Shown here in pieces: positions 2,215 to 60,705 of a stretch of 64,000 bases of DNA; position 1 is the stretch's first letter; every line of letters starts with the position of its first letter. A program made the translations under genes and the position numbers. This DNA comes from Octopus vulgaris (Eukaryota), in NCBI GenBank assembly GCA_951406725.2, contig OX597820.1, forward strand, positions 21,018,001 to 21,082,000, read 5' to 3'. The notes under the pieces were generated by a model, which saw only the letters and a list, made by a program, of their open reading frames with translations, was not told where the DNA came from and ran no database searches.

Positions 2215-2487
2215 AAAAGACCACCTCTCCGACTTTGTTTAAATATAACTTTCTGAAAAACGTATACTTTTAAATGAACGTTTCAAGAAGATTTAGGGTT
2301 ATATGGAATTTGTTGTAGAAACTTTTATCGGGAGAGTGAAGAAAAGTTTAGGATAATGCACACACCTCGACTTTATTTCTTCATACGTTTTAATGAGATA
2401 AGTGAATTATCCACCCTCCCCTTCGTCTTTTATTTTCCACATCAAATTCGAACAAAACCACAATTTACACACACCATCTGAAATGTA

Positions 2488-2990
2488 CAGTTCCGTATTT
2501 AAAAGATGAGGAATTATGTACATTATTTACATTTGACGAGTATTTGTCCTCATCTTGTTTAACACAACGTTTCGGCTGATATACCCTCCAGCCTTCATCA
2601 TGTATCTTGGAGAAATTTCGAACCTGGGTTCTCATTCATAAGGTATTTTTCGCTGTTACTATCATTATTATTATTATTGGTACTACTTAAGAAGAGTGGT
2701 CCCGCTGAGCGCACTCGTGCATCCGCGCTAGATAGTCGTGACTAGTCGATCGTGTTTTTGTGTTTTATTTACTTTGTTTAAAAAAAATTATTTACTTTGT
2801 GAAAAAAATTATTTATTTTGTGTTTTACTTACTTTACTAGGTGGTCGTTGTAGGATCGACTAGTCACGACTAGCTAGCGCGAGTACGCGCATCGGTACCA
2901 CTCTTCTTATGTAGTACCATTGTTATTATTATTCAGGTCACTACGAACTCGGAATCTTAGGGTTAGTAGCCCACTACGCCATATACCCGT
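2488..2990 (-). mobile_element. tRNA-headed element E with hammerhead-like tail, interrupted by a MITE
   Basis: Reverse complement of 3184-3420. Contains (A)UGAUGAAGGCUG...CAGCCGAAACGUUGUGUU, with the core C mutated in this copy. Confidence 0.8.
2679..2918. mobile_element. MITE with long imperfect TIRs, apparent 3-bp ATT TSD
   Basis: ggtactacttaagaagagtggtccc ... gtaccactcttcttatgtagtacc, with inner IR tagtcgtgactagtcgatc/gatcgactagtcacgacta and ATT on both sides. Confidence 0.85.
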
Positions 2991-3183
2991 GGGCATATGG
3001 CGTAATGGTCAAGGTTCTTAAAATGAGGTGGCATTATATTTAAGACTGCACTGTAAATGAGGTACTTATTAAAATGTAAACACATGTTAGTGTACAACTC
3101 ATATAATGAATACAAGATTGACAGTCAGACAGCAGTTATTGGAGTAATTATACTTTGTGGTTGTGAATAAATAAATAGCAAAC

Positions 3184-3420
3184 GGGCATATGGCGTAGTG
3201 GTTAAGAGCGCGGGCTACTAACCCCAAGATTCCGAGTTCGATTCCAAGCAGTGACCTGAATAATAATAACAACAACAACGAAAAATATCTTAGGGGTGAG
3301 AACCCAGGTTCCAAATTTCCCCAAGATACCTGATGAAGTCTTGAGGATACATCAGCCGAAACGTTGTGTTAACAACAAACAAGATGAGGACAAATATCCA
3401 TCAAATGTAAATAATGTACA
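3184..3420 (+). mobile_element. tRNA-headed element E with hammerhead-like tail
   Basis: A box tggcgtagtgg, anticodon-like loop ctactaa, B box gagttcgattcc, (AAT/AAC)n linker, then cctgatgaag...cagccgaaacgttgtgtt. Confidence 0.8.
3325..3370 (+). ncRNA. putative minimal type I hammerhead ribozyme (Penelope-type)
   Basis: Consensus of three copies: stem I GACAC/GUGUU, core CUGAUGA, stem II GGCUG/CAGCC, GAAA, palindromic ACGU mini stem III and GUU site. Stem II is mutated in this particular copy. Confidence 0.55.
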
Positions 3421-3750
3421 TCTGAAACCATATTTGTAGAAAAATTTATGATTTGAGCTCAAATACTGGCGATTCATTGGTTAAAATTCGAAGAATTAAA
3501 CTACGTTAAACTTACAAATTACAAATTTATCAAAAAAGCCAAGTGAAAACAATGTTTTCTTTTGACACTTCAAATTGTTTAGTTAACTAGAAATTGGGTT
3601 GAATTCTGTCTATCTAAAGGAAAAGATCCAAATTTATTAAAAAACATCCATTTTTTCAAAAAGGTATGAGGAAACAAATTGAAGTATGTAAGTTATCGAA
3701 AACTCCTCTCCACTCTTCTGGCGAAAATATTTTTCACAACAAATTCCGAT

Positions 3751-4167
3751 AGGTGCAGGAGTGGCTGTGTGGTAAGTAGCTTGCTAACCAACCACATGGT
3801 TCTGGGTTCAATCCACTGCGTGGCATCTTGGGCAAGTGTCTTCTGCTATAGGCCCGGGCCGACCAATGCCTTATGAGTGGATTTGGTAGACGGAAACTGA
3901 AAGAAGCCTGTCGTATATATATATATATATAAATGTATGTGTGTGTGTGTTTGTGTGTCTGTGTTTGTCCCCTAGCATTGCTTGACAACCGATGCTGGTG
4001 TGTGTTTACGTCCCCGTCACTTAGCGGTTCGGCAAAAGAGACCGATATAATAAGTACTGGGCTTACAAAAAATAAGTCTCGGGGTCGATTTGCTCGACTA
4101 AAGGTGGTGCTCCAGCATGGCCGCAGTCAAATGACTGAAACAAGTAAAAGAGTAAAGAGAAAAGAGT
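3751..4167 (+). mobile_element. SINE family A
   Basis: Full head, internal (TA)n(TG)n, 3' half and (AAAAGAGT)-type tail. Confidence 0.9.
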
Positions 4168-4726: not shown

Positions 4727-5917
4727 CTTAGAGAGAAAAAAAAACAACAAAAACATACGCTATTTACATGAAAACAGTATGAACTTTCAAAATAAAATCT
4801 ATTTTGTGTTGACAATCTAAATATGAAAGCTTCGTCTATGTATACTGACTGCGACTAGGGCCAATAAGAAGTTAGTTCACTAAGTACATAGGTCTGGAGC
4901 CCAGAGAACCAATGAGGGGCCGGTGAATATCTGTTGTTCCCCTTCCTCAAAAGTTAAAGACAACCCCCCCACAGTTACCTCTTCATTGCATCATCTTACA
5001 AAGGTTATCAAATAAGCAGTTTTTTGGGTGTATTTTTAGCTTTTTATTACTGGGACCTGCCTATCTTTTCAGTAAAATGAACAAGTGTACTTTCAACCTG
5101 GCTGCAGACCAGCGCTAGATTAATAATTAAGCAAAATAAGCACGTGCTCAGGACATCAAGAGAAGTATGTATGAGTTTGTGTGTGTGTTGGAAAAATCTA
5201 AGAAATGGTAAATGGTTTACGACACAAAAGAAATCATTTTAAACTTGTTAAAATAATATTCGAAGTGGTTTATATGATCGGAAATGTAATTTCGAAGTGT
5301 CTATGGTATCACAGTGAGGCTCTGATCAAAGATTTTACAATTAAAAAGATGTTGAAAACTTTTCAAATGTAAATAAAGTGGAAGTATACAAAATAACTAT
5401 TTTCTATCTTACTGTTAGTTTTGTTTCGTCTTGAGAAGCAAAAAATTCATTTTATGGTTTATTATTGTTAAGATTTTGAATAACATATATATATATGGGG
5501 CCACCAAAATCTATTAAGTTTTAGGGCCTTGCTGTAGACTAATGATTGAAACGAGTAAAAATAAATAACGAGATATAATAATATGTACATTTAAGTATGA
5601 CAACGCCTCACTTAAAACAGGTTTAACGTATTTATCAACACTCTTCCGAGACACTTGATTGAAATTTATACCTAACTTACGTTCGATTAGATTTAAATTT
5701 AAGTCACATCATACATCCGGAATTGTCTAAATTATGTTCAATAAACCAAAAGCTCCGCATACAAACAAACCTTCATAAAACAATAATTTAGGTTCCTTTA
5801 TTATATTCGTTCATTAATTTTCATTTCATCGACGGAAAGAGAAAGGTCGGCACATTAAGATCAAAATAGCCAGGATTTTCCTGGAAAGGGTCTTCGGTGT
5901 TTAAATCGCAAAATAAT

Positions 5918-16055: not shown

Positions 16056-16290
16056 TGGCGGCGAGCTGGCAGAATGGTTAGCATGCTGGGCGAAATGCTT
16101 AGTGGTATTTTGTCTGCCGCTACGTTCTGAGTTCAAATTCCGCCGAGGTCGACTTTGCCTTTCATCTTTCCGGGGTCGATTAAATAAGTACCAGTTACAC
16201 ACTGGGGTCGATATAATCGACTTAATTCATTTGCCTGTCCTTGTTTGTCCTCTCTGTGTTTAGCCCCTTGTGGGTAGTAAAGAAATAGGT
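16056..16290 (+). mobile_element. SINE family B
   Basis: Near-consensus full monomer. Confidence 0.9.
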
Positions 16291-18545: not shown

Positions 18546-20680
18546 TGTGTACAGTGCTCAGGTGCACTACAACTCATCTAAAGTGTATATATAATCAGGT
18601 GTAGTTTCGACGGATTTCGGGAAGCATGAGGGCCTTAAAGGATGCAGTGTCATGGCAGTCAACAACTGATGCAGGCAGTTTATTCCACGCTTCAGCAACC
18701 CTGAGCGTGAAAAAATGTTTCCGAAAGTCATGGGAGCTGTGCTGTTTTCTGACTTTGTAGGCATGTCCACGTGTGTTAGACACATGGAGATCAAAAAGGT
18801 GTTCAGTGTTGTTGTTGGTGAGGTGGTTGAAAACCTTGTGGGTGTTTACCAAGTCCGTCGCTAGACGCATCGGAGCTTCAGTGAATCCATGCCCAGGGAA
18901 ACAAGGCGCTCAGAATATGGTAGGTGTCTGATGGAGGGTATGCGTTTGGTTGCACGTCTCTGGACAGATTCCAGGAGGTCAATGTTCTGAGCAAGATAGG
19001 GATTCCAAACTGATGATGCGAATTCCAAGTGTGGTCGTACCATAGCTGTATACAGTTTTAAATAGATGGCTGGAGAGCGGCTAACAAAAGTCTTGCTGAG
19101 TGATGCCAAGACACCCTCGGCCTTCTTGACAATTTTAGAGATATGCTTTGTCCAACGCAAATCACTGCTGACAGTGATGCCTAGGTCACGCTCGCAAGAG
19201 GATTTCTTGATATCAGTGTTATGGAGGGAGTATGTGGACGCAGGGTTTTTCTCCCAAAATGCATGGTGGTACACTTGTCCACAGCCAGTTTCAGTTGCCA
19301 GTCTGTGATCCATTGCTGCATTGTGTCTAGGTCTGATTGCAGGAAAGAGTTGTAGACATCAGGATCAGTCCTCTTGATTTCAAGGTACAGCTTGATGTCG
19401 TCTGCATATTTCAATACTCTGGCATTCTTTAAATTGGCATCTATGTCATTAATGTATGCCACAAACAGGAGGGGACCAAGGACAGATCCCTGTGGTACAC
19501 CCGATGACATCTCATATGGTGTAGAGTGCTGTCCTAGAACTGTGACTACCTCCTTTCGGCTGAGGATGAAGGATTTCAACCAGTTAAAAAGGTCATCCCC
19601 CACACCCATTGCAGAGAGTTTCACCATAAGCCTTTTGTGTGGCACAGAGTTGAAAGCCTTAGCAAAGTCAAGGTAGACAACATCCACCCATGAGCCACTG
19701 TCAGTGATCTGAGTAATGTCCTCAAGGAACTCGACAAGCTGGTCACTGCAGCTGGAGTTAGGGACAAATCCATATTGTGAGGGTCGGATGAGACTGTGAG
19801 AGCTCCAGAAGTTCCAGAGTGTTTCTCTGACACACGATTCCATCAGTTTTGCAATACAGCTAGTGAAACTGACTGGGCGATAGTTGACAGGTGATGTGCG
19901 GTCACCCTTTTTGAACAGAGGAATGACACTGGCAGTTTTCCACTGCTCCGGAGTAGCACCATTGTTGAGACAGTACTGGAAGAAAATAGAAAGCTGGTGT
20001 AAAAGGAAGTGCCTGCCACGTTTGAGAAGCAGGTATGTAACTCCATCGAGACCAGGGGAGGCATAGTTGCGCTTATTTTGAAGGTGACGTCGCAGCATTG
20101 CAGGTGTAAATTCCATAGTTGTTATGGAGTTTGCTGTTAGTGATGGTGAAGATGGTGCATTTTGACTTTCGACAGTGAATATGTTTGCATAGCATTCGGC
20201 AATGAGTTCTGCGCATTCCTTGGGGTCGTCAGTGTTCTGGTTCGTGTGAGGGTTGCGAAGAGGGCCCACTGGAGAGTGAGGTCTCTGCTTTGAATGCACA
20301 TATTTCCAGAAAACCTTGCTGTCAGGATTGGCTGCTATGCACTGTTCAAATTCAAGCACTGCATTTTTTGTCACTTGCTTGAGATGGTTGGAGGATTTAT
20401 TCCACTTCTTCCTGTTGGTGTCTGATTTATGCAACTTGTATTCCTGTTCAGCAGTCCGATGTTCCTTCCTGGCAAGTCGGACTGCTGAAGTTTCCCAAAT
20501 TGCCCTTTTGGGGCGGTTCTTCTTTTTTTGTTTACGTGGCACTGATGCTGCACATGCTGCCCATATTGAGTCCAGGATACTCTGGAGTATAGTATTCACA
20601 TCTCCAGAGTTGTAGAATTCACGCCAGTTTGGGTGCTGTAGTTCAGTGTGGTACAGGTTCCAATCTGCTCTCTTCCAATC
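18485..20680 (-). mobile_element. 5'-truncated CR1/L2-group LINE (RT plus C-terminus), two frameshifts, (TTA)n tail
   Basis: NYRPVSFTS, DVVYLDFAKAFNSVPH, GVPQGSVLGPLLF, YADDIKLY, RPHLEFASSVWNPY and FFTLRVAEAWNKLP occur across three overlapping ORFs. It is inserted into an RTE family D 3' UTR. Confidence 0.95.
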
Positions 20681-21178
20681 TTGGAAAGGCATCCAGCTGT
20701 AAAAACTATCCCAAAACTGATCTTGCCTGTACTCGTACCAAATTAAAAGCAGGGGCATATATTACAGGTGTGCTAGGTGTGTGTTGCACACACACTAAAA
20801 ATGGCAAATTCATTATAAATATTAACCTTACTCGTTAGTTTAATCACAAATCTTAATGGAAATCTTTTGTTATATTCCTACTTGGAATTTGGTGGCACTG
20901 GATGTATGTGGCAGCACAGCCAATACTACACTGGTAAACAGCACTCAACCCATTCTGCAAGGTGGTTGGTGTTTGGAAGGGCATCCAGCTGTAAAAAAAT
21001 AAAAGCCATGCCAAAACAGACACAGAAGTATGGTGCAGTCTGCTGCCTGACCAGCTCTTGTCAAACTGTCCAACTTGTTGATTTGAAAGCTTCGTATCTC
21101 TCATAAGCAACACTTTGGCCACCGTTGTGATACAGGTACACTACTTACTTTCTGGAAAACCAGAAAATCCATACTATA

Positions 21179-25780: not shown

Positions 25781-28700
25781 AACTTAGAATAACTTAGAAA
25801 GGTTTTTGGCCAGTATTGGCCCAGGCCATGTCTAACTTAATAGCACCACCTGGCGAAGTCTTTCAGTTCAGGATTTGGGCACCAAGGCCCATTCGAGCAG
25901 AGAGTTATTGTTTGCGGAGACATATCCGGGTGTGGATGGTTTGTCCGGTACTGTTTGAAGGAATTTGTCCAAAGACTTCTTGAATTTTGTGTGGTCAGTT
26001 TCTTTTTTGACGTGTCCTGGTGTAATGTTGAAGAGAGCGGGTCCAATTGAGGTGAAATAGTTGTGCCGTATTGTCGTTATGTGATGCGATTTAGATTTTT
26101 GTTGTGGACGGATGGCACGTGGTCCAAGCCTTGGATGCATTTTGAAGGTGATGCCAACATCATTCGGACAGTGCTGATGGAATATTTTCCACATCATACA
26201 GATAATGTAGCGTTCACGGCGTCGTTGGAGTGAATACAATTTCAGCTTCTCTAGTCTACCCCAGTAGTCAAGGTCTGACATGCCATCTATCTTTTTTGTG
26301 ATTGACCTTTGGGGAGCTTCAATTCTCATAATATTTTGTTTTGTGTAGGGAGACCACAGTGGACAGCAGTATTCAAGGTGGGGTCGGGCAAAAGTGGAGA
26401 AGAGAAGGATAATAGCGTGGGAATCTCTCGACTGGAAGGTTCTGAGAATCCAGGAACACATTCTGCGGGCCATGTCAACTTTGCTGCTTATATGTGTAGC
26501 CCAGCTTATGTTGTTGTCCACTGTTACTCCCAGGTCTCTGATGTTGTTGGATGCCATGAGAATTTCTCCAGAAGGAAGAGAGTATGGGAGTTTCAGAGCG
26601 TCCTCCCTTCCAAAGTGGATCAGTTCGAATTTGTCTTCATTTAGCAACATGTTATTCTTTTCCGCCCATTGGACAACAGCTAGTAGGTCTGACTGAAGGT
26701 TTATTCGGTCATCCACGCCATTGATGACCTTCTGGAGCTTGGAATCATCAGCGAAGGTTCTGATGTTGCTGTGTTTGATGGTGTCAGTAATATCATTTAT
26801 GTAGATGATGAAGAGAAGTGGGCCCAACACAGTGCCTTGTGGGACACCACTGCTGACTTTGGCTGGGCTGGATTTGACTCCTTCGACTACAACATGTTGG
26901 GTTCTGTTAGAGAGGAAGCACTTGATCCATTGCAGCAGCTTTCCAGTGACACCAATATTGGACAGCTTTCTCAGAAGGATCTTATGATCAACCCTGTCAA
27001 AGGCCTTGCTGAAATCAAGGTAGATGACATCAGTGTTGGAACCCTCTCCCAAGGCTCTCAAAATGTCATCAAAATGATGCAGTAGCTGCGTCAGGCAATC
27101 TCTCCCATTACGAAATCCATGCTGGTTGGGGTTCAGCATATTATGACTCTCAAGGAAGTGAGTCATACGCGATCTCAGCACCCTCTCAAATACCTTGATG
27201 ATATGAGAGGTGAGTGAGATTGGACGGTAATTCACGGCAAGCGATTTGTTTCCTTTTTTGAAAACTGGGACAACAGACTGGGATAGAAGGTCTTCTGGTA
27301 TATATCCAGCATCCAATGAGTTCCGCCACAGATTGGCTAGAGGGGGTGCAAGTTGGTTTTGACACATCTTCAAGACACAAGCAGGGAACCTATCGGGACC
27401 TACTGCTGAATTATGCTTCATTTCCTTTATTGCTGCTAAGACATCAGGAGCGCCAAATGTTATGTCCGATAAAGTGTATTGGGGAGTAACATCACTGATA
27501 CAGCCCAGATCAGTCATATCAGGATTGCTGAAAACAGAGCAATATTGTTTCTGCAATATTTCTCCCATGGTTTTGGCATTGTCTTGAAGAGTACCATTTT
27601 CATCAATCAGAGGGCCAACAGTAGAACCAGTGACTCTGTGTTTTTTTGCAAATGAAAAGAACACTTTGGGATTGAGTTTGATCTTCTCAATGGCCCAGGC
27701 CTCTTCAGCTCTTCGCTGACTATTGATGATAGACATCATGTTGTTTTGGAGTTTATGTTTTTTAATCTCTAGCGACGAGATGGCAGTCAGGTTGGTGTGT
27801 TGCTGTTGACAGTATTTCAGCATGTTGATCTTTTTGTTGATTCTTTTAATTTTCCTTATGAGAGATTTTCTATTTCTAGGGATTCGACACTTAGATTTGT
27901 TTGCAGATCTTAATGGGGTGTGTCTTGCACATATGTTCGTGATGGTGTCTACAAGTGACTGCCAGGACTTTTTGATGTTAGTGGGTGTGTATGTGTGCGT
28001 GAAGGACCAATCGACTTGTGCAAGATCATTATTGATCGCTTCCCAGTTTGCATTGTGGAAATCCATAGTGTCAAATGGATGAACAGGAGGGATGACATTT
28101 GTTTTGCATTTTGGCCAGTGAAATCTCAGATCACAGAGAACCATGTCATGGTCGGAGAGTAGGGTTTTCTCCACTGCAATATTGTGGATAGTATCAGTGT
28201 GATTGCTGAAAATTAAGTCTAAGACGTTTTTGTGACATCTCGTTGGTTCGAGTACCAGTTGGGACAAGAAGAAGTCATCCATGAAGTCAAGAAGCGATTC
28301 CACTGCCTCCCTGTCAGGGGTTGAGAGAGAAGAACCTGGCGGCAGACTGTTTATAGACCAGTCAACCCCGGGAAGGTTGAAATCTCCCATCATTAAAATG
28401 TTGTCAGGTTGACACTGCTGAATGAAACACTTTATGCTGTTGAGGCATTCCTTGAAGCATGGTAGGGGCGTTTGGGGTGGTCTGTAGAGCCCAACTACTG
28501 TTAAGTTGTTGGTTTGACTGAATACAGCGACTGCTTCGCAGTATCCATTCGAAAATATGTTCATGGCTTCTGTTGAGAATGAATCATGGACATAAATGGC
28601 AGTCCCACCCTTTCTTCTGCCAACACGATCAGCACGAATGGTTTTGAAATTTTTAACTTTCACCTCGGCTTCCAAGTGGAGGTCACTAAGATGGGTTTCA

Positions 28701-28894
28701 GTGAGGACGAAGAAAGGGATGTGGTTTGGATGGGCCTCGACCCAGTCCTCCAGGAATCTTATCTTCCATTTTTGTGTATTGGTGGAAGGGCTGATGCCTT
28801 GGGCATTAAGCAGAAATGTTGAGGCGAGAGTGGATGGTTTTAATTGTTTTGGTGATTTGTTTATTTGATTGCTTTTTAATTTGATTGCTTTTAA
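25781..28894 (-). mobile_element. young CR1/L2-group LINE with intact ORF2 and no ORF1
   Basis: 3' UTR hairpin GGCCA-atac-TGGCC, tail ttctaagttattctaagtt, and an identical ~100-bp flanking duplication. Confidence 0.95.
25868..28894 (-). CDS. LINE ORF2: APE endonuclease plus reverse transcriptase (~1000 aa, uninterrupted)
   Basis: EN motifs [34 protein letters not shown] and SDHDMV. RT motifs [35 protein letters not shown] and FADDSKL. The tracked extension to 29233 is read-through of flanking (TA)n. Confidence 0.9.
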
Positions 28895-28974
28895 TATATA
28901 TATATATATATATACATATGCATGTATGTATGTAATGTATGTATGTATATATGTATATGTATATATATATACAA

Positions 28975-29116
<142 letters not shown>

Positions 29117-29166
29117 GCATGTATGTATGTAATGTATGTATGTATATATGTATATGTATATATATA

Positions 29167-29600
29167 TAGGGACACTATATTTCATTTTGAAACCGTAACA
29201 TACTACCAAGTATATTAAAGGTTTGTAAGTCAATAGTTTCCCACTTTATGTTAGCAGTGTCTCACTTTCACTTGTACAAGTATCTCTACAGATTTACTTT
29301 AGAATTCAGACCTAGTATTGACTTATAAACGCTGAATATACTTAGTGTCCCTATGGTGTCCCTTCCAGCAATTGATAAGTACATATCAGTTGCCAGGAAT
29401 GTGCTTAATATATAAGCTGGTCAAGCCAATAGTGTTACACTGTTAAATTTAGTAACTATTTAAGTAATGTATTCAGGGATAGTTGTTGGGTTGGATGTGA
29501 TACTGAAGAAGGAACGATAACTCTTGAAATGCGTATATACACTCATTATCTTAACTTTCAGTGCTTGTTCTAAATTCTATAATCTGTAGAGATATATGTG
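29167..29600 (+). mobile_element. fold-back element with minimal hammerhead (Penelope-type terminal sequence)
   Basis: IRs at 29167-29177/29343-29353 and 29208-29235/29316-29343, plus gtgata-CTGAAGA-AGGA-loop-TCTT-GAAA-TGC-GTA-tatacac at 29497-29542. Confidence 0.55.
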
Positions 29601-31898: not shown

Positions 31899-32515
31899 AG
31901 GTGGTGAGCTGGCAGAAACATTAGTATGCCAGGCGAAATGCTTGTCTTTATGTACTGAGTTCAAATTATGCTCAGGTCGACTATGCCTTTCATCCTTTCA
32001 GGGTCGATAAATTAAGTACTAGTTGCGTACTGGGGTCTATCTAATCAACTGGCCCCCTTCCCCCAAAATTTCAGGCCTTGTACCTAGAATAGAAAAGAAT
32101 ATTTAAAGGTAGCAAACTGGCAGAAACGTTAGCGTGCCAGGAAAAATGCTTAGCAGTATTTCATTTGTCTTTACATTCTGAGTTCAAATTCCGCTGAGGT
32201 TGACTTTGCCTTTCATCCTTTCAGAGTCAATAAATTAAGTACCAGCTGTATACTGGAGTTGATCTAATCGACTGGCCTCCTCCCACCAAAATTTCAAGCC
32301 TTGTGCCTAGAGTAGAAAAGAATATTTAAAGGCGACGAGCTGGCAGAAACATTAGCACGCCAAGTGAAATGCTTGTCTTTACATTCTGAGTTCAAATTCC
32401 GTTGAGGTCAACTTTGCCTTTCATCCTTTCAGGGTCCATAAATTAAGTACCAGTTGTGTACTCGATTGATCTCCCCACAAAATTTCAGGCCTTGTGCCTA
32501 GGGTAGAAAAGAATA
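31899..32515 (+). mobile_element. SINE family B head-to-tail trimer
   Basis: Three ~200-bp units joined by tagaaaagaatatttaaagg. Confidence 0.9.
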
Positions 32516-46558: not shown

Positions 46559-46960
46559 CTTTTACTTGTTTCAGTCATTTGACTGCAGCTATGCTGGAGC
46601 ACTGCCTTTATAGTCGAGCAAATTGACCCCAGAGCATATTCTTTATAAGCCTAGTGCTTATTCTATCGGTCTCTTTTGCCGAACCGCTAAGTTACAGGGA
46701 TGTAAACATCCCAGCATCAGTTGTCAAGCAGTGTTGGGGGGGCAAACACAGACACATGAATATATACACACATATACATATATAAATACATATATGATGG
46801 GCTTCTTCCAGTTTCCGTCTACCAAATCCACTCACAAGGCTTTGGTTGGCCCGAGGCTATAGTAGAAGACACTTGCCCAAGGTGCCATGCAATGCGACTG
46901 AACCCAGCACCATGTGGTTGGTAAGCAAGCTACTTACCACATAGCCACTCCTGCACCTAC
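46559..46960 (-). mobile_element. SINE family A
   Basis: Full-length reverse match, preceded by a plus-strand A head at 46415-46545. Confidence 0.85.
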
Positions 46961-47100
46961 GGTGTCTTGGAAAAATTTCAAACCTGGGTTCTCATTCCTA
47001 AAGTATGTTTTTCTATGTTATCATTATTATTAAGGTCACTGTCTGGAATCGAACTCGAAATCATTGGGTTAGTAGCCCACGCCATTAACCACTACGCCAT
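46961..47100 (-). mobile_element. element E, third copy (ends at the hammerhead core)
   Basis: Reverse strand reads atggcgtagtggttaa...gggctactaaccc...gagttcgattcc...gagaacccagg...ccaagacacc. Confidence 0.8.
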
Positions 47101-47206
47101 AAAAAATTGTTTTTTCAGAATGGGTTAAAAAACCAAGGCTGTGAAGATTTTAGAACATAATCTTCACAGCCTTGATTTTTTATCTCATTCTGAAAAAAAA
47201 TTTTAT
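47099..47206. repeat. ~108-bp palindrome / hairpin insertion
   Basis: ttttttcagaatggg...caaggctgtgaagatt-loop-aatcttcacagccttg...cattctgaaaaaa. Confidence 0.85.
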
Positions 47207-60285: not shown

Positions 60286-60705
60286 GGCACAGGAGTGGCT
60301 CTGTGGTAAGTAGCTTGCTTACCAGCCACATGGTTCCGGGTTCAGTCTCACTGCATGGCACCTTGGGCAAGTGTCTTCTACTATAGCCTTGGGCCGACCA
60401 AAGCCTTGTGAGTGGATTTGGTAGAAGGAAACTGAAAGAAGCCTGTTGTGTATATATATATACATATATATGTGTGTGTGTGTGTTTGTGTGTCTGTGTT
60501 TGTCCCCCCACCATTACTTGACAACTGATCTTGGTGTGTTCATGTCCCCGTAACTTAGCGGTTTGGCAAAAGAGACAGATAGAATAAGTACTGGGCTTAC
60601 AAAGAATAAGTCCCAGGGTCGATTTCTTTGATTAAAGGCGGTACTCCAGCATGGCCACTGCTGCAGTCAAATGACTGAAACAAATAACAGAATAAAAGAA
60701 TAAAT
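60286..60705 (+). mobile_element. SINE family A
   Basis: Full-length match. Confidence 0.9.

Follow-up and report, generated by a model that had tools for sequence, protein, structure and literature searches.

The tRNA-headed repeat at positions 3,184–3,420 of the window (the whole stretch of 64,000 nucleotides of Octopus vulgaris DNA analyzed here) is, on the evidence of its sequence, part of a decayed element of the Penelope/Poseidon type in the same genome, namely its pseudo-LTR and tail, because the end of that element's ORF leads into the head of the repeat and the tail of the repeat runs on into the ORF. The original prediction of a free-standing SINE-retrozyme hybrid, in which a tRNA head is joined to a borrowed Penelope tail, thus falls, since the head belongs to the autonomous element's own pseudo-LTR; the accompanying proposal that the repeat is mobilized by Penelope RT/GIY-YIG machinery is borne out by the partner element and by insertion marks of the Penelope type. 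We judge the chances to be about even that the captured tRNA-like head serves as an internal Pol III promoter that makes both a short, SINE-like RNA and a full-length RNA. To the fuller reading we assign a probability of about 0.42: an autonomous coding element would be transcribed end to end by Pol III, would have been purged of runs of four or more T (T4 runs) over 2.6 kb that include an 835-codon ORF, and would make its own SINE by internal initiation of reverse transcription, giving tens of thousands of short copies.

The genome searched comprises 2.8 Gb in 227 contigs. Copy A (Table 1) used as query gave 3,469 first-look candidates, and 40 of these, at 87–92% identity, were scored. Thirty scored copies align as a single unit in which a head of 73 nt is followed by an (AAT/AAC)n run of varying length, a middle of 45 nt, the hammerhead motif and the tail, and these 30 diverge from their majority by 5.0% on average. 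The family has many thousands of members, with 6,978 exact matches to the ribozyme core genome-wide. All three copies predicted in the window were recovered to within a few bases. Their heads had been described as carrying A and B boxes; copy B lacks the 3′ half of the B box and 12 nt after the A box. The consensus of the A box is well established. In the family, the Penelope ORF frame continues open from position 3296 onward across the ribozyme and the tail.

Table 1. Features of the repeat family in the window
Feature	Position	Strand	Basis
Copy A, a solo pseudo-LTR whose 3′ end is the short one (past AATGTA)	3182..3421	+	Alignment with family copies
tRNA-derived head of copy A, 73 nt; stems degenerate, boxes intact; nearest tRNA seen is tRNA-Arg	3184..3256	+	Alignment to tRNA genes
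A box	3191..3201	+	Sequence; tRNA positions T8 and G18 kept
B box	3236..3245	+	Sequence; G53-T54-T55, A58 and C61 kept
Length-variable (AAT/AAC)n run, the other common 5′ break point among copies	3259..3279	+	Copy alignments
Site where the Penelope ORF has its first in-frame ATG in the family (copy A has GTG); putative start	3296..3298	+	Majority frame, L154
Minimal type I hammerhead motif with two mismatches in stem II; cleavage predicted to fall after 3365 (GUU)	3325..3370	+	Sequence, predicted
Tail to the short 3′ end; coding sequence, ORF N-terminus	3371..3421	+	Match to PLE ORF
Copy B, a solo pseudo-LTR whose 3′ end is the long one (past AACTGTA)	2486..2990	-	Alignment
Head of copy B, with two deletions	2988-2936	-	Alignment
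Hammerhead of copy B, C3 changed to A	2606-2561	-	Sequence
Inverted 23-nt head piece adjoining the 5′ end of copy B; Penelope-type inversion	2991..3013	+	Sequence comparison
240-bp later insertion in the (AAT)n of copy B, MITE-like, foreign to the family	2679..2918	.	22-bp terminal inverted repeats
Copy C, head and middle, broken at the first ribozyme-core base by a different SINE	46961..47101	-	Alignment, BLAST

Copies B and A lie 190 bp apart (2990–3184) with their tails outward and may be the two arms of one inverted insertion. The MITE-like insertion in copy B has one mismatch in its terminal inverted repeats, longer imperfect internal arms and a flanking ATT repeat. The window also holds a different and very abundant SINE-like repeat with an A/B-box-like head, at 3751–3990 and 14 more places (for example 46720–46958 and 60290–60525), which gives 15 BLAST hits longer than 140 nt within the window, one of them interrupting copy C. 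A third abundant short repeat of roughly 130–190 nt, spotted through the flank of locus L083, lies at 62–375, 16095–16222, 32146–32328 and some 17 further places, and two stretches of the minus strand are LINE-like: a remnant with a 526-codon frame and an RVT_1 hit (19181–20761), and a 1,125-codon stop-free stretch that appears partly LINE-like by eye (25868–29245).

The link to the coding element can be followed from both sides. Five loci share sequence ahead of the head that reads as RT, thumb and GIY-YIG, and in loci selected by the endonuclease the head or pseudo-LTR stands directly after the ORF end in 28 of 30 cases, or in 22 of 24 once a duplicated segment of contig C31, present in seven copies, is taken as a single case. 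In loci picked by the N-terminal part of the ORF, the tail continues into the ORF. In locus L154, which starts at the head, 208 open codons extend across the ribozyme and tail, in a frame 39% identical to the N-terminus of an 847-aa RT protein; the residues encoded by the ribozyme align as well. Aligned to the PLE of its own genome, then, the tail proves to be the start of the PLE ORF and not a LINE 3′ end. The majority sequence of 20 long copies is 2,902 nt long and contains an 835-codon frame that opens with an ATG in the middle of the repeat and closes at a stop codon some 30 nt short of the following head. The order of the unit is head, (AAT)n, start of an RT and GIY-YIG ORF that spans the hammerhead and the tail, stop codon, about 30 nt, and the head again. 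No intact ORF was seen among these loci, the longest open piece being 362 codons.

The coding part gives an RVT_1 hit with an E-value of 9e-8. A GIY-YIG-like motif (YSIPCSC/YKGET and two His) was read by eye, and a Pfam search of that piece returned no hit; homologous proteins carry PF00078, and one of seven carries PF01541. As is characteristic of Penelope/Poseidon elements, RT plus a GIY-YIG at the C-terminus occupy a single ORF. The CX2-5CxxC Zn-finger linker between RT and endonuclease, described as present in Neptune and Nematis (PMC8557442), is absent in locus L095, and by the scheme of that source its absence places the element in the Penelope/Poseidon clade. The dominant GIY-YIG family, with a 781-aa ORF, was also considered as the partner and rejected: none of its 30 loci carries the tail, and its ribozyme differs. 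In that family (L037, L042, L174–L178), to whose 781-codon open frames 16 of 150 GIY-YIG hits belong, the linker is Cys-rich and Neptune-like and the hammerhead variant has a U3-A8 core; it is probably a young, recently active PLE family.

The head shares the SINE2 hallmark of a tRNA-derived 5′ part with A and B boxes. Against tRNA genes of this genome it aligns nearly without gaps over 73 nt, with T8, G18, C32-T33, G53-T54-T55, A58 and C61 kept. Among 30 tRNA loci of six isotypes the best pairwise match is tRNA-Arg(TCT) at 46/74 (z 6.9 relative to shuffles), and tRNA-Arg(TCG), at 47/75, is also among the closest. The acceptor and T stems are broken and the boxes are intact. ARAGORN found no tRNA in the window, and no Rfam tRNA hit on the copies reached the family threshold. 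The boxes are conserved at 0.94–0.96 among dead copies, with 0.96 elsewhere in the unit, as is expected with or without Pol III use. Fourteen of 90 heads, candidates for a separate SINE family made of the head and (AAT)n alone, are without a ribozyme part within 450 nt, and of nine with longer flanks, two resume after an insertion. A tRNA first called Ser(ACT) in locus L244 was rejected as donor, being a Cys-like variant no closer to the head; L244 itself has seven tRNA-Cys-like genes clustered within 3 kb, among them variants whose anticodons are ACA and ACT. In related PLE loci from metagenomes, ARAGORN, applied to 51 of the 79, detected no tRNA-headed relative, the 3′ ends contain A/B boxes in 0 of 26, and there is one weak box-like match upstream of L344; the viral contigs searched for tRNA-headed relatives gave no match.

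Insertion marks were scored in the first 90 exact head matches on contig C1, a sample that includes a few paired or duplicated loci. An inverted piece lies upstream in 55 of the 90, and among the 76 with a downstream part, 32 have the short and 38 the long 3′ end, about 33 nt apart. As first described, poly-A is lacking (none of these 70 3′ ends has it) and the tail is not LINE-like, being PLE ORF sequence. Target duplication is inconsistent: one of 11 solo copies shares at least 8 nt between its flanks and three share 6–7 nt, so that short duplications are possible. The LINE-derived tail, poly-A or simple-repeat end and consistent target duplication that define SINE2 elements were accordingly not found in these copies, and what was found is the Penelope set: a pseudo-LTR with hammerhead, partial tandems, inverted 5′ copies and an optional tail of 30–40 nt. 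Run-on into a second ORF unit occurs in none of the 90. The family and the same two 3′ ends appear in contigs under organism labels B, C, D and E, which is no gauge of expression. For the anole element PAc, in vitro work describes the optional tail as marking two internal RT start sites near the ORF start (PMC11167929).

Tandem units each bearing a hammerhead, the hallmark of retrozymes, were not seen among head-bearing copies, which are solo or inverted. One array without a tRNA head, at 612–1644 of L081, consists of four tandem units of about 240–250 nt, each with ribozyme, tail and ORF start; it is retrozyme-like and born from this PLE. With the tandem array headless and run-on into a second ORF unit scored in none of the 90 head copies, the results lend no support to circular RNA of the retrozyme kind for copies that bear the head. 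Five further loci (L157, L418, L419, L420 and L430) are internally deleted copies with the order repeat, piece of the ORF start, repeat. Since L418 and L419 share one junction at different places of contig C3, the miniature form was itself amplified.

The layout of a minimal type I hammerhead stands as first described, except that a single unpaired base also separates CUGAUGA from stem II. The motif has a 5-pair stem I, CUGAUGA, the extra base, a stem II that opens with G-C, GAAA, a palindromic ACGU and the cut triplet GUU. The extra base is reported as typical of Penelope minimal hammerheads (PMC4209133), and all the traits which that source gives for them are present in the sequence of the family motif: the CUGANGA/GAAA/UH core, an extra base between 9 and 10.1, G10.1-C11.1, a short helix I and palindromic 15.2-16.2. 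The same source describes such hammerheads as not cleaving as monomers and cleaving at a low level as dimers, and according to PMC11167929 the anole ribozyme needs protein to cut and its cutting is not needed for insertion in vitro. We predict that the octopus motif cuts only as a dimer or with the help of protein, and it is probably dispensable for insertion.

The remark that no copy has a perfect ribozyme is correct for the window and wrong for the genome, which has 1,018 exact intact 43-nt motifs; the ribozyme is intact in seven of the 30 best hits. Within the family 94.7% of 357 cells pair (30 copies), one stem I pair is split between 15 C-G and 14 U-G, and no compensatory change on both sides of a pair was found in the 30 copies. 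Among related metagenome PLE loci with a full 3′ end, 12 of 26 carry the same layout with different, paired stems. The Rfam scan suggested for detecting a hammerhead in the copies gave nothing above the family threshold; it also missed the PLE ribozyme of locus L270. In monomer folding the hammerhead is not the minimum-energy structure in any of four sequences and only stem II forms in three, but such folding is uninformative for a motif predicted to act as a dimer.

Support for Pol III transcription is indirect and comes from where the copies begin and from the lack of T4 runs. Exact motif counts fall from the ribozyme matches given above to 4,735 for the head, 919 for positions −26 to −7 ahead of it and 759 for −66 to −48, the motifs being 19–20 nt long and somewhat different in mutability. 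Of the 90 head copies, 58 begin between −8 and +9, 14 begin further in and 18 carry upstream element sequence; thus, about one head in five is still joined to coding sequence (18 of 90, or 919 vs 4,735 by motif). Put differently, 58 of the 76 copies that reach the 5′ edge of the head stop within 17 nt of it, and ten of the 18 with upstream sequence end across the next 390 nt. Among the 58 edge-ending copies, 28 were scored at +1 to +8 and 29 extend to −1 to −7; the loop letters AC at −2/−1 are usually kept. A hairpin, GCCC-AC-GGGC, straddles this edge; at −13.1 kcal/mol it is the second strongest of the element, and many inversions are centered there. The strongest local hairpin, in the ORF (−16.6 kcal/mol), stops four of 27 copies, which is about background.

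Other junctions point to nearly the same position. Five of 30 loci, which represent four independent junctions (L411, L418/L419, L420 and L430), are partial tandems in which an internal ORF position is followed at once by a new unit beginning at about −6, and both L154 and L425 run from the head on into the ORF. A further strong stop is the (AAT)n run, in 11 of 30 ribozyme-selected loci by manual reading; since it is one, and since the head edge coincides with a hairpin, RT does stop at internal features. Locus L428 extends from −61 through the repeat into the ORF, so that some templates or template switches pass the proposed start, and of ten copies selected by the N-terminus that get as far as the 5′ repeat, only one extends to the head. 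At three junctions (L411, L157/L140 and L418/L419) the downstream unit starts with AA or ATAA before GCCCAC, letters that match the stop-codon context 23 nt upstream and not the usual upstream letters.

Pol III stops at runs of at least four T. The 2,902-nt majority of 20 long copies has no such run, and neither does a second majority built from 53 loci. For the ORF, shuffling of bases gives an expectation of 4.3 T4 runs (P 0.011) and synonymous shuffling one of 2.9 (P 0.031), with none observed; these P values are modest. The 20 decayed copies have T4 runs at 0.32 of the expected number. As controls, the 781-aa PLE family, with the same T content, has 8–9 T4 runs in 2.3 kb, a LINE ORF of the window has eight in 1.6 kb, and 79 related metagenome PLE loci (which include repeats of the same element) have them at 1.46 times expectation; one of the 65 loci with an expectation of at least 2.5 has none. 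In related 3′ UTRs, 11 of 12 have a T4 run before the ribozyme. Of the 79 loci, only L270 and L314, which are one element and one of the closest matches, have no T4 run in the coding part; in L270 this holds over 1.9 kb of ORF, and a tRNA head is absent. At 5406–5780 of L270, a metagenome record, a T-rich 3′ UTR has six T runs and a clear minimal hammerhead. A T4-free ORF is thus possible without Pol III, and the lack of T4 runs may in part be a trait of the clade. G4 runs are also absent from the ORF (0 vs 3.0 expected), and relatives have them at a ratio of 0.59, so that, unlike T4, they are under-represented there. The terminator argument for Pol III is therefore suggestive, not proof.

In three RNA-seq runs under the related organism label C, the repeat is covered deeply and equally on both strands, 86–87% of its reads run on into unlike sequence, and the ORF part is covered about 100-fold less. 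This is the pattern of copies embedded in host transcripts and so holds no information on a Pol III start or on cleavage. No pile-up of read starts or ends on the repeat was found in these fragmented runs, which cannot settle either point, and no joint from the cut site back to itself is present among the 15 joints listed of 56.

The preferred reading would order these observations as follows. A sequence of tRNA origin, possibly a small SINE ending in (AAT)n, would have entered the pseudo-LTR and become its promoter. Pol III would start about 6 nt before the tRNA +1, that is, 13 nt ahead of the A box, and, without T4 runs to stop it, would read the whole 2.6-kb unit and terminate only in flanking DNA. 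The element's RT would then start inside this RNA at one of the two tail sites about 33 nt apart, as the anole element does in vitro (PMC11167929). Reverse transcription from the tail of the 5′ repeat, or on the RNA of a solo repeat, would run out of template at the transcription start and leave a head-to-tail copy of 210–250 nt, and the cDNA would often fold back or pair with a second cDNA to give the inverted piece; a start at the 3′ tail would give the 5′-truncated coding copies. The predicted ribozyme cut site would fall 70 nt after the start codon. Translation of an uncapped Pol III RNA is the weakest step.

Published work also weighs against a Pol III reading: Drosophila Penelope is described as having a Pol II-type promoter and an intron in its pseudo-LTR, and the coding partners of Pol III elements are argued to have to use Pol II (PMC2377424 and PMC10886601, respectively). 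The work might accordingly be split between two polymerases, Pol III making short pseudo-LTR RNAs (a true Penelope-dependent SINE, and near to the original prediction) and Pol II making the coding RNA from an unseen promoter or by host read-through, with the lack of T4 runs due to chance or clade. We think this somewhat unlikely. It accounts equally well for the step at the head edge, has no need for translation of uncapped RNA, and agrees with the T4-free ORF of headless L270, with the upstream extension of L428 and with the small share of ORF-linked heads; against it, a Pol III transcript begun in the 5′ repeat encounters no terminator until the element ends, L154 and L425 extend from the head into the ORF, and T4-free ORFs are rare among relatives. 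An unlikely reading, too, is that the head is only a passenger, a small tRNA-SINE with an (AAT)n tail that inserted 30 nt after the stop codon and is carried along, the short copies being 5′-truncated products of a Pol II RNA on which RT stops or folds back at the head-edge hairpin. That hairpin is real and is the center of many inversions, the microsatellite is also a stop, and the RNA data show no start. Yet the stronger hairpin causes no excess of stops comparable to that at the head, template jumps land at about −6, and neither the lack of T4 runs nor the intact boxes in a head with decayed stems would be explained.

tRNA-like cassettes cut by RNase P are known, and RNase P could in principle set the 5′ end of a longer Pol II RNA by cutting at the head. 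Nearly half of the edge-ending copies, those at +1 to +8, would suit such processing, but the other half reach beyond the cut (partly helped by the palindrome) and usually keep the AC at −2/−1, and with the acceptor and T stems broken we regard it as very improbable. A classical LINE-dependent SINE with a chance hammerhead look-alike is practically untenable: the tRNA head, the Rfam scan without a hammerhead hit and the absence of compensatory change within the family would all fit it, but the tail is Penelope coding sequence, a link to the PLE that refutes it, poly-A and consistent target duplication are lacking, and the motif recurs in related PLE loci with different, paired stems.

The element resembles PAc of the anole and Penelope of D. 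virilis, as these are described, in its one ORF with RT and C-terminal GIY-YIG and no Zn-finger linker, in a pseudo-LTR whose minimal hammerhead overlaps the ORF start, in the optional 30–40-nt tail and in inverted and partial-tandem insertions (PMC11167929; PMC2377424). It differs from those descriptions in that the octopus pseudo-LTR opens with a 73-nt tRNA-derived head, most copies stop there and the unit has no T4 run; Penelope's own promoter, as reported, also lies within its pseudo-LTR and is of the Pol II type with an intron. The Schistosoma repeats SM-alpha and Sj-alpha likewise join tRNA-derived sequence to a type I hammerhead and are apparently transcribed by Pol III (PMC6765202; PMC4918200), so that a tRNA promoter with a hammerhead is not in itself new. 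They are described as non-coding, often tandem and equipped with an efficient canonical ribozyme, whereas the octopus family has a minimal ribozyme, dispersed or inverted copies and the role of terminal repeat of a coding element. Non-LTR retrozymes (PMC7229834; 10.64898/2026.07.22.740005) also derive from PLE pseudo-LTRs, are short and non-coding, carry a type I hammerhead and are proposed to use PLE enzymes; unlike the solo or inverted octopus copies, they are defined by head-to-tail tandems and circular RNA, and the description in 10.64898/2026.07.22.740005 gives them no tRNA head.

TRIMp3 elements (Cassandra, Helenus and Ajax) are reported to have a tRNA or 5S promoter in the terminal repeat, with boxes kept while the fold decays and a proposed origin by SINE insertion (PMC10886601). 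Those are non-autonomous LTR elements of 0.3–1.3 kb, a kind defined by true LTRs, a primer-binding site and a polypurine tract, whereas the octopus promoter would lie in the coding element itself, where the terminal repeat overlaps a PLE ORF and is not a true LTR; the word "Penelope" is absent from the text of that source. With tRNA-derived SINEs (SINE2) the short copies have in common an A/B-box head, a sharp 5′ edge, a length of 200–250 nt, thousands of copies and a 3′ part shared with the mobilizing element. They are unlike them in having a PLE partner, no poly-A, no consistent target duplication and inverted 5′ pieces, and in that the head is also present in the partner.

In a literature search covering titles and the beginnings of abstracts, we found no description of a coding PLE whose pseudo-LTR is tRNA-derived. 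The short copy may already stand under a SINE name in Repbase, Dfam or SINEBase, in supplements or in subscription papers, such as one from 1994 that deals with tRNA-derived SINEs and is cited in both PMC4758252 and PMC4824008. New here are the step-like stop of copies at the head edge and the T4-free 2.9-kb majority in a Penelope-like element.

The polymerase usually separates SINEs (short parasites, Pol III) from LINEs (coding, Pol II), as set out in PMC10886601. If the Pol III reading is true, a coding element with a tRNA promoter and no terminators breaks this rule, and its RNA would be a natural long Pol III transcript that serves as a template and perhaps as a message. On the weaker reading, too, a SINE-like family is tied to a Penelope-type partner within one genome, a link of the kind that 10.64898/2026.07.22.740005 has proposed, and the thousands of copies keep a record of where the RNA begins and of both sites at which RT starts, in agreement with the model of internal initiation from the anole element (PMC11167929).
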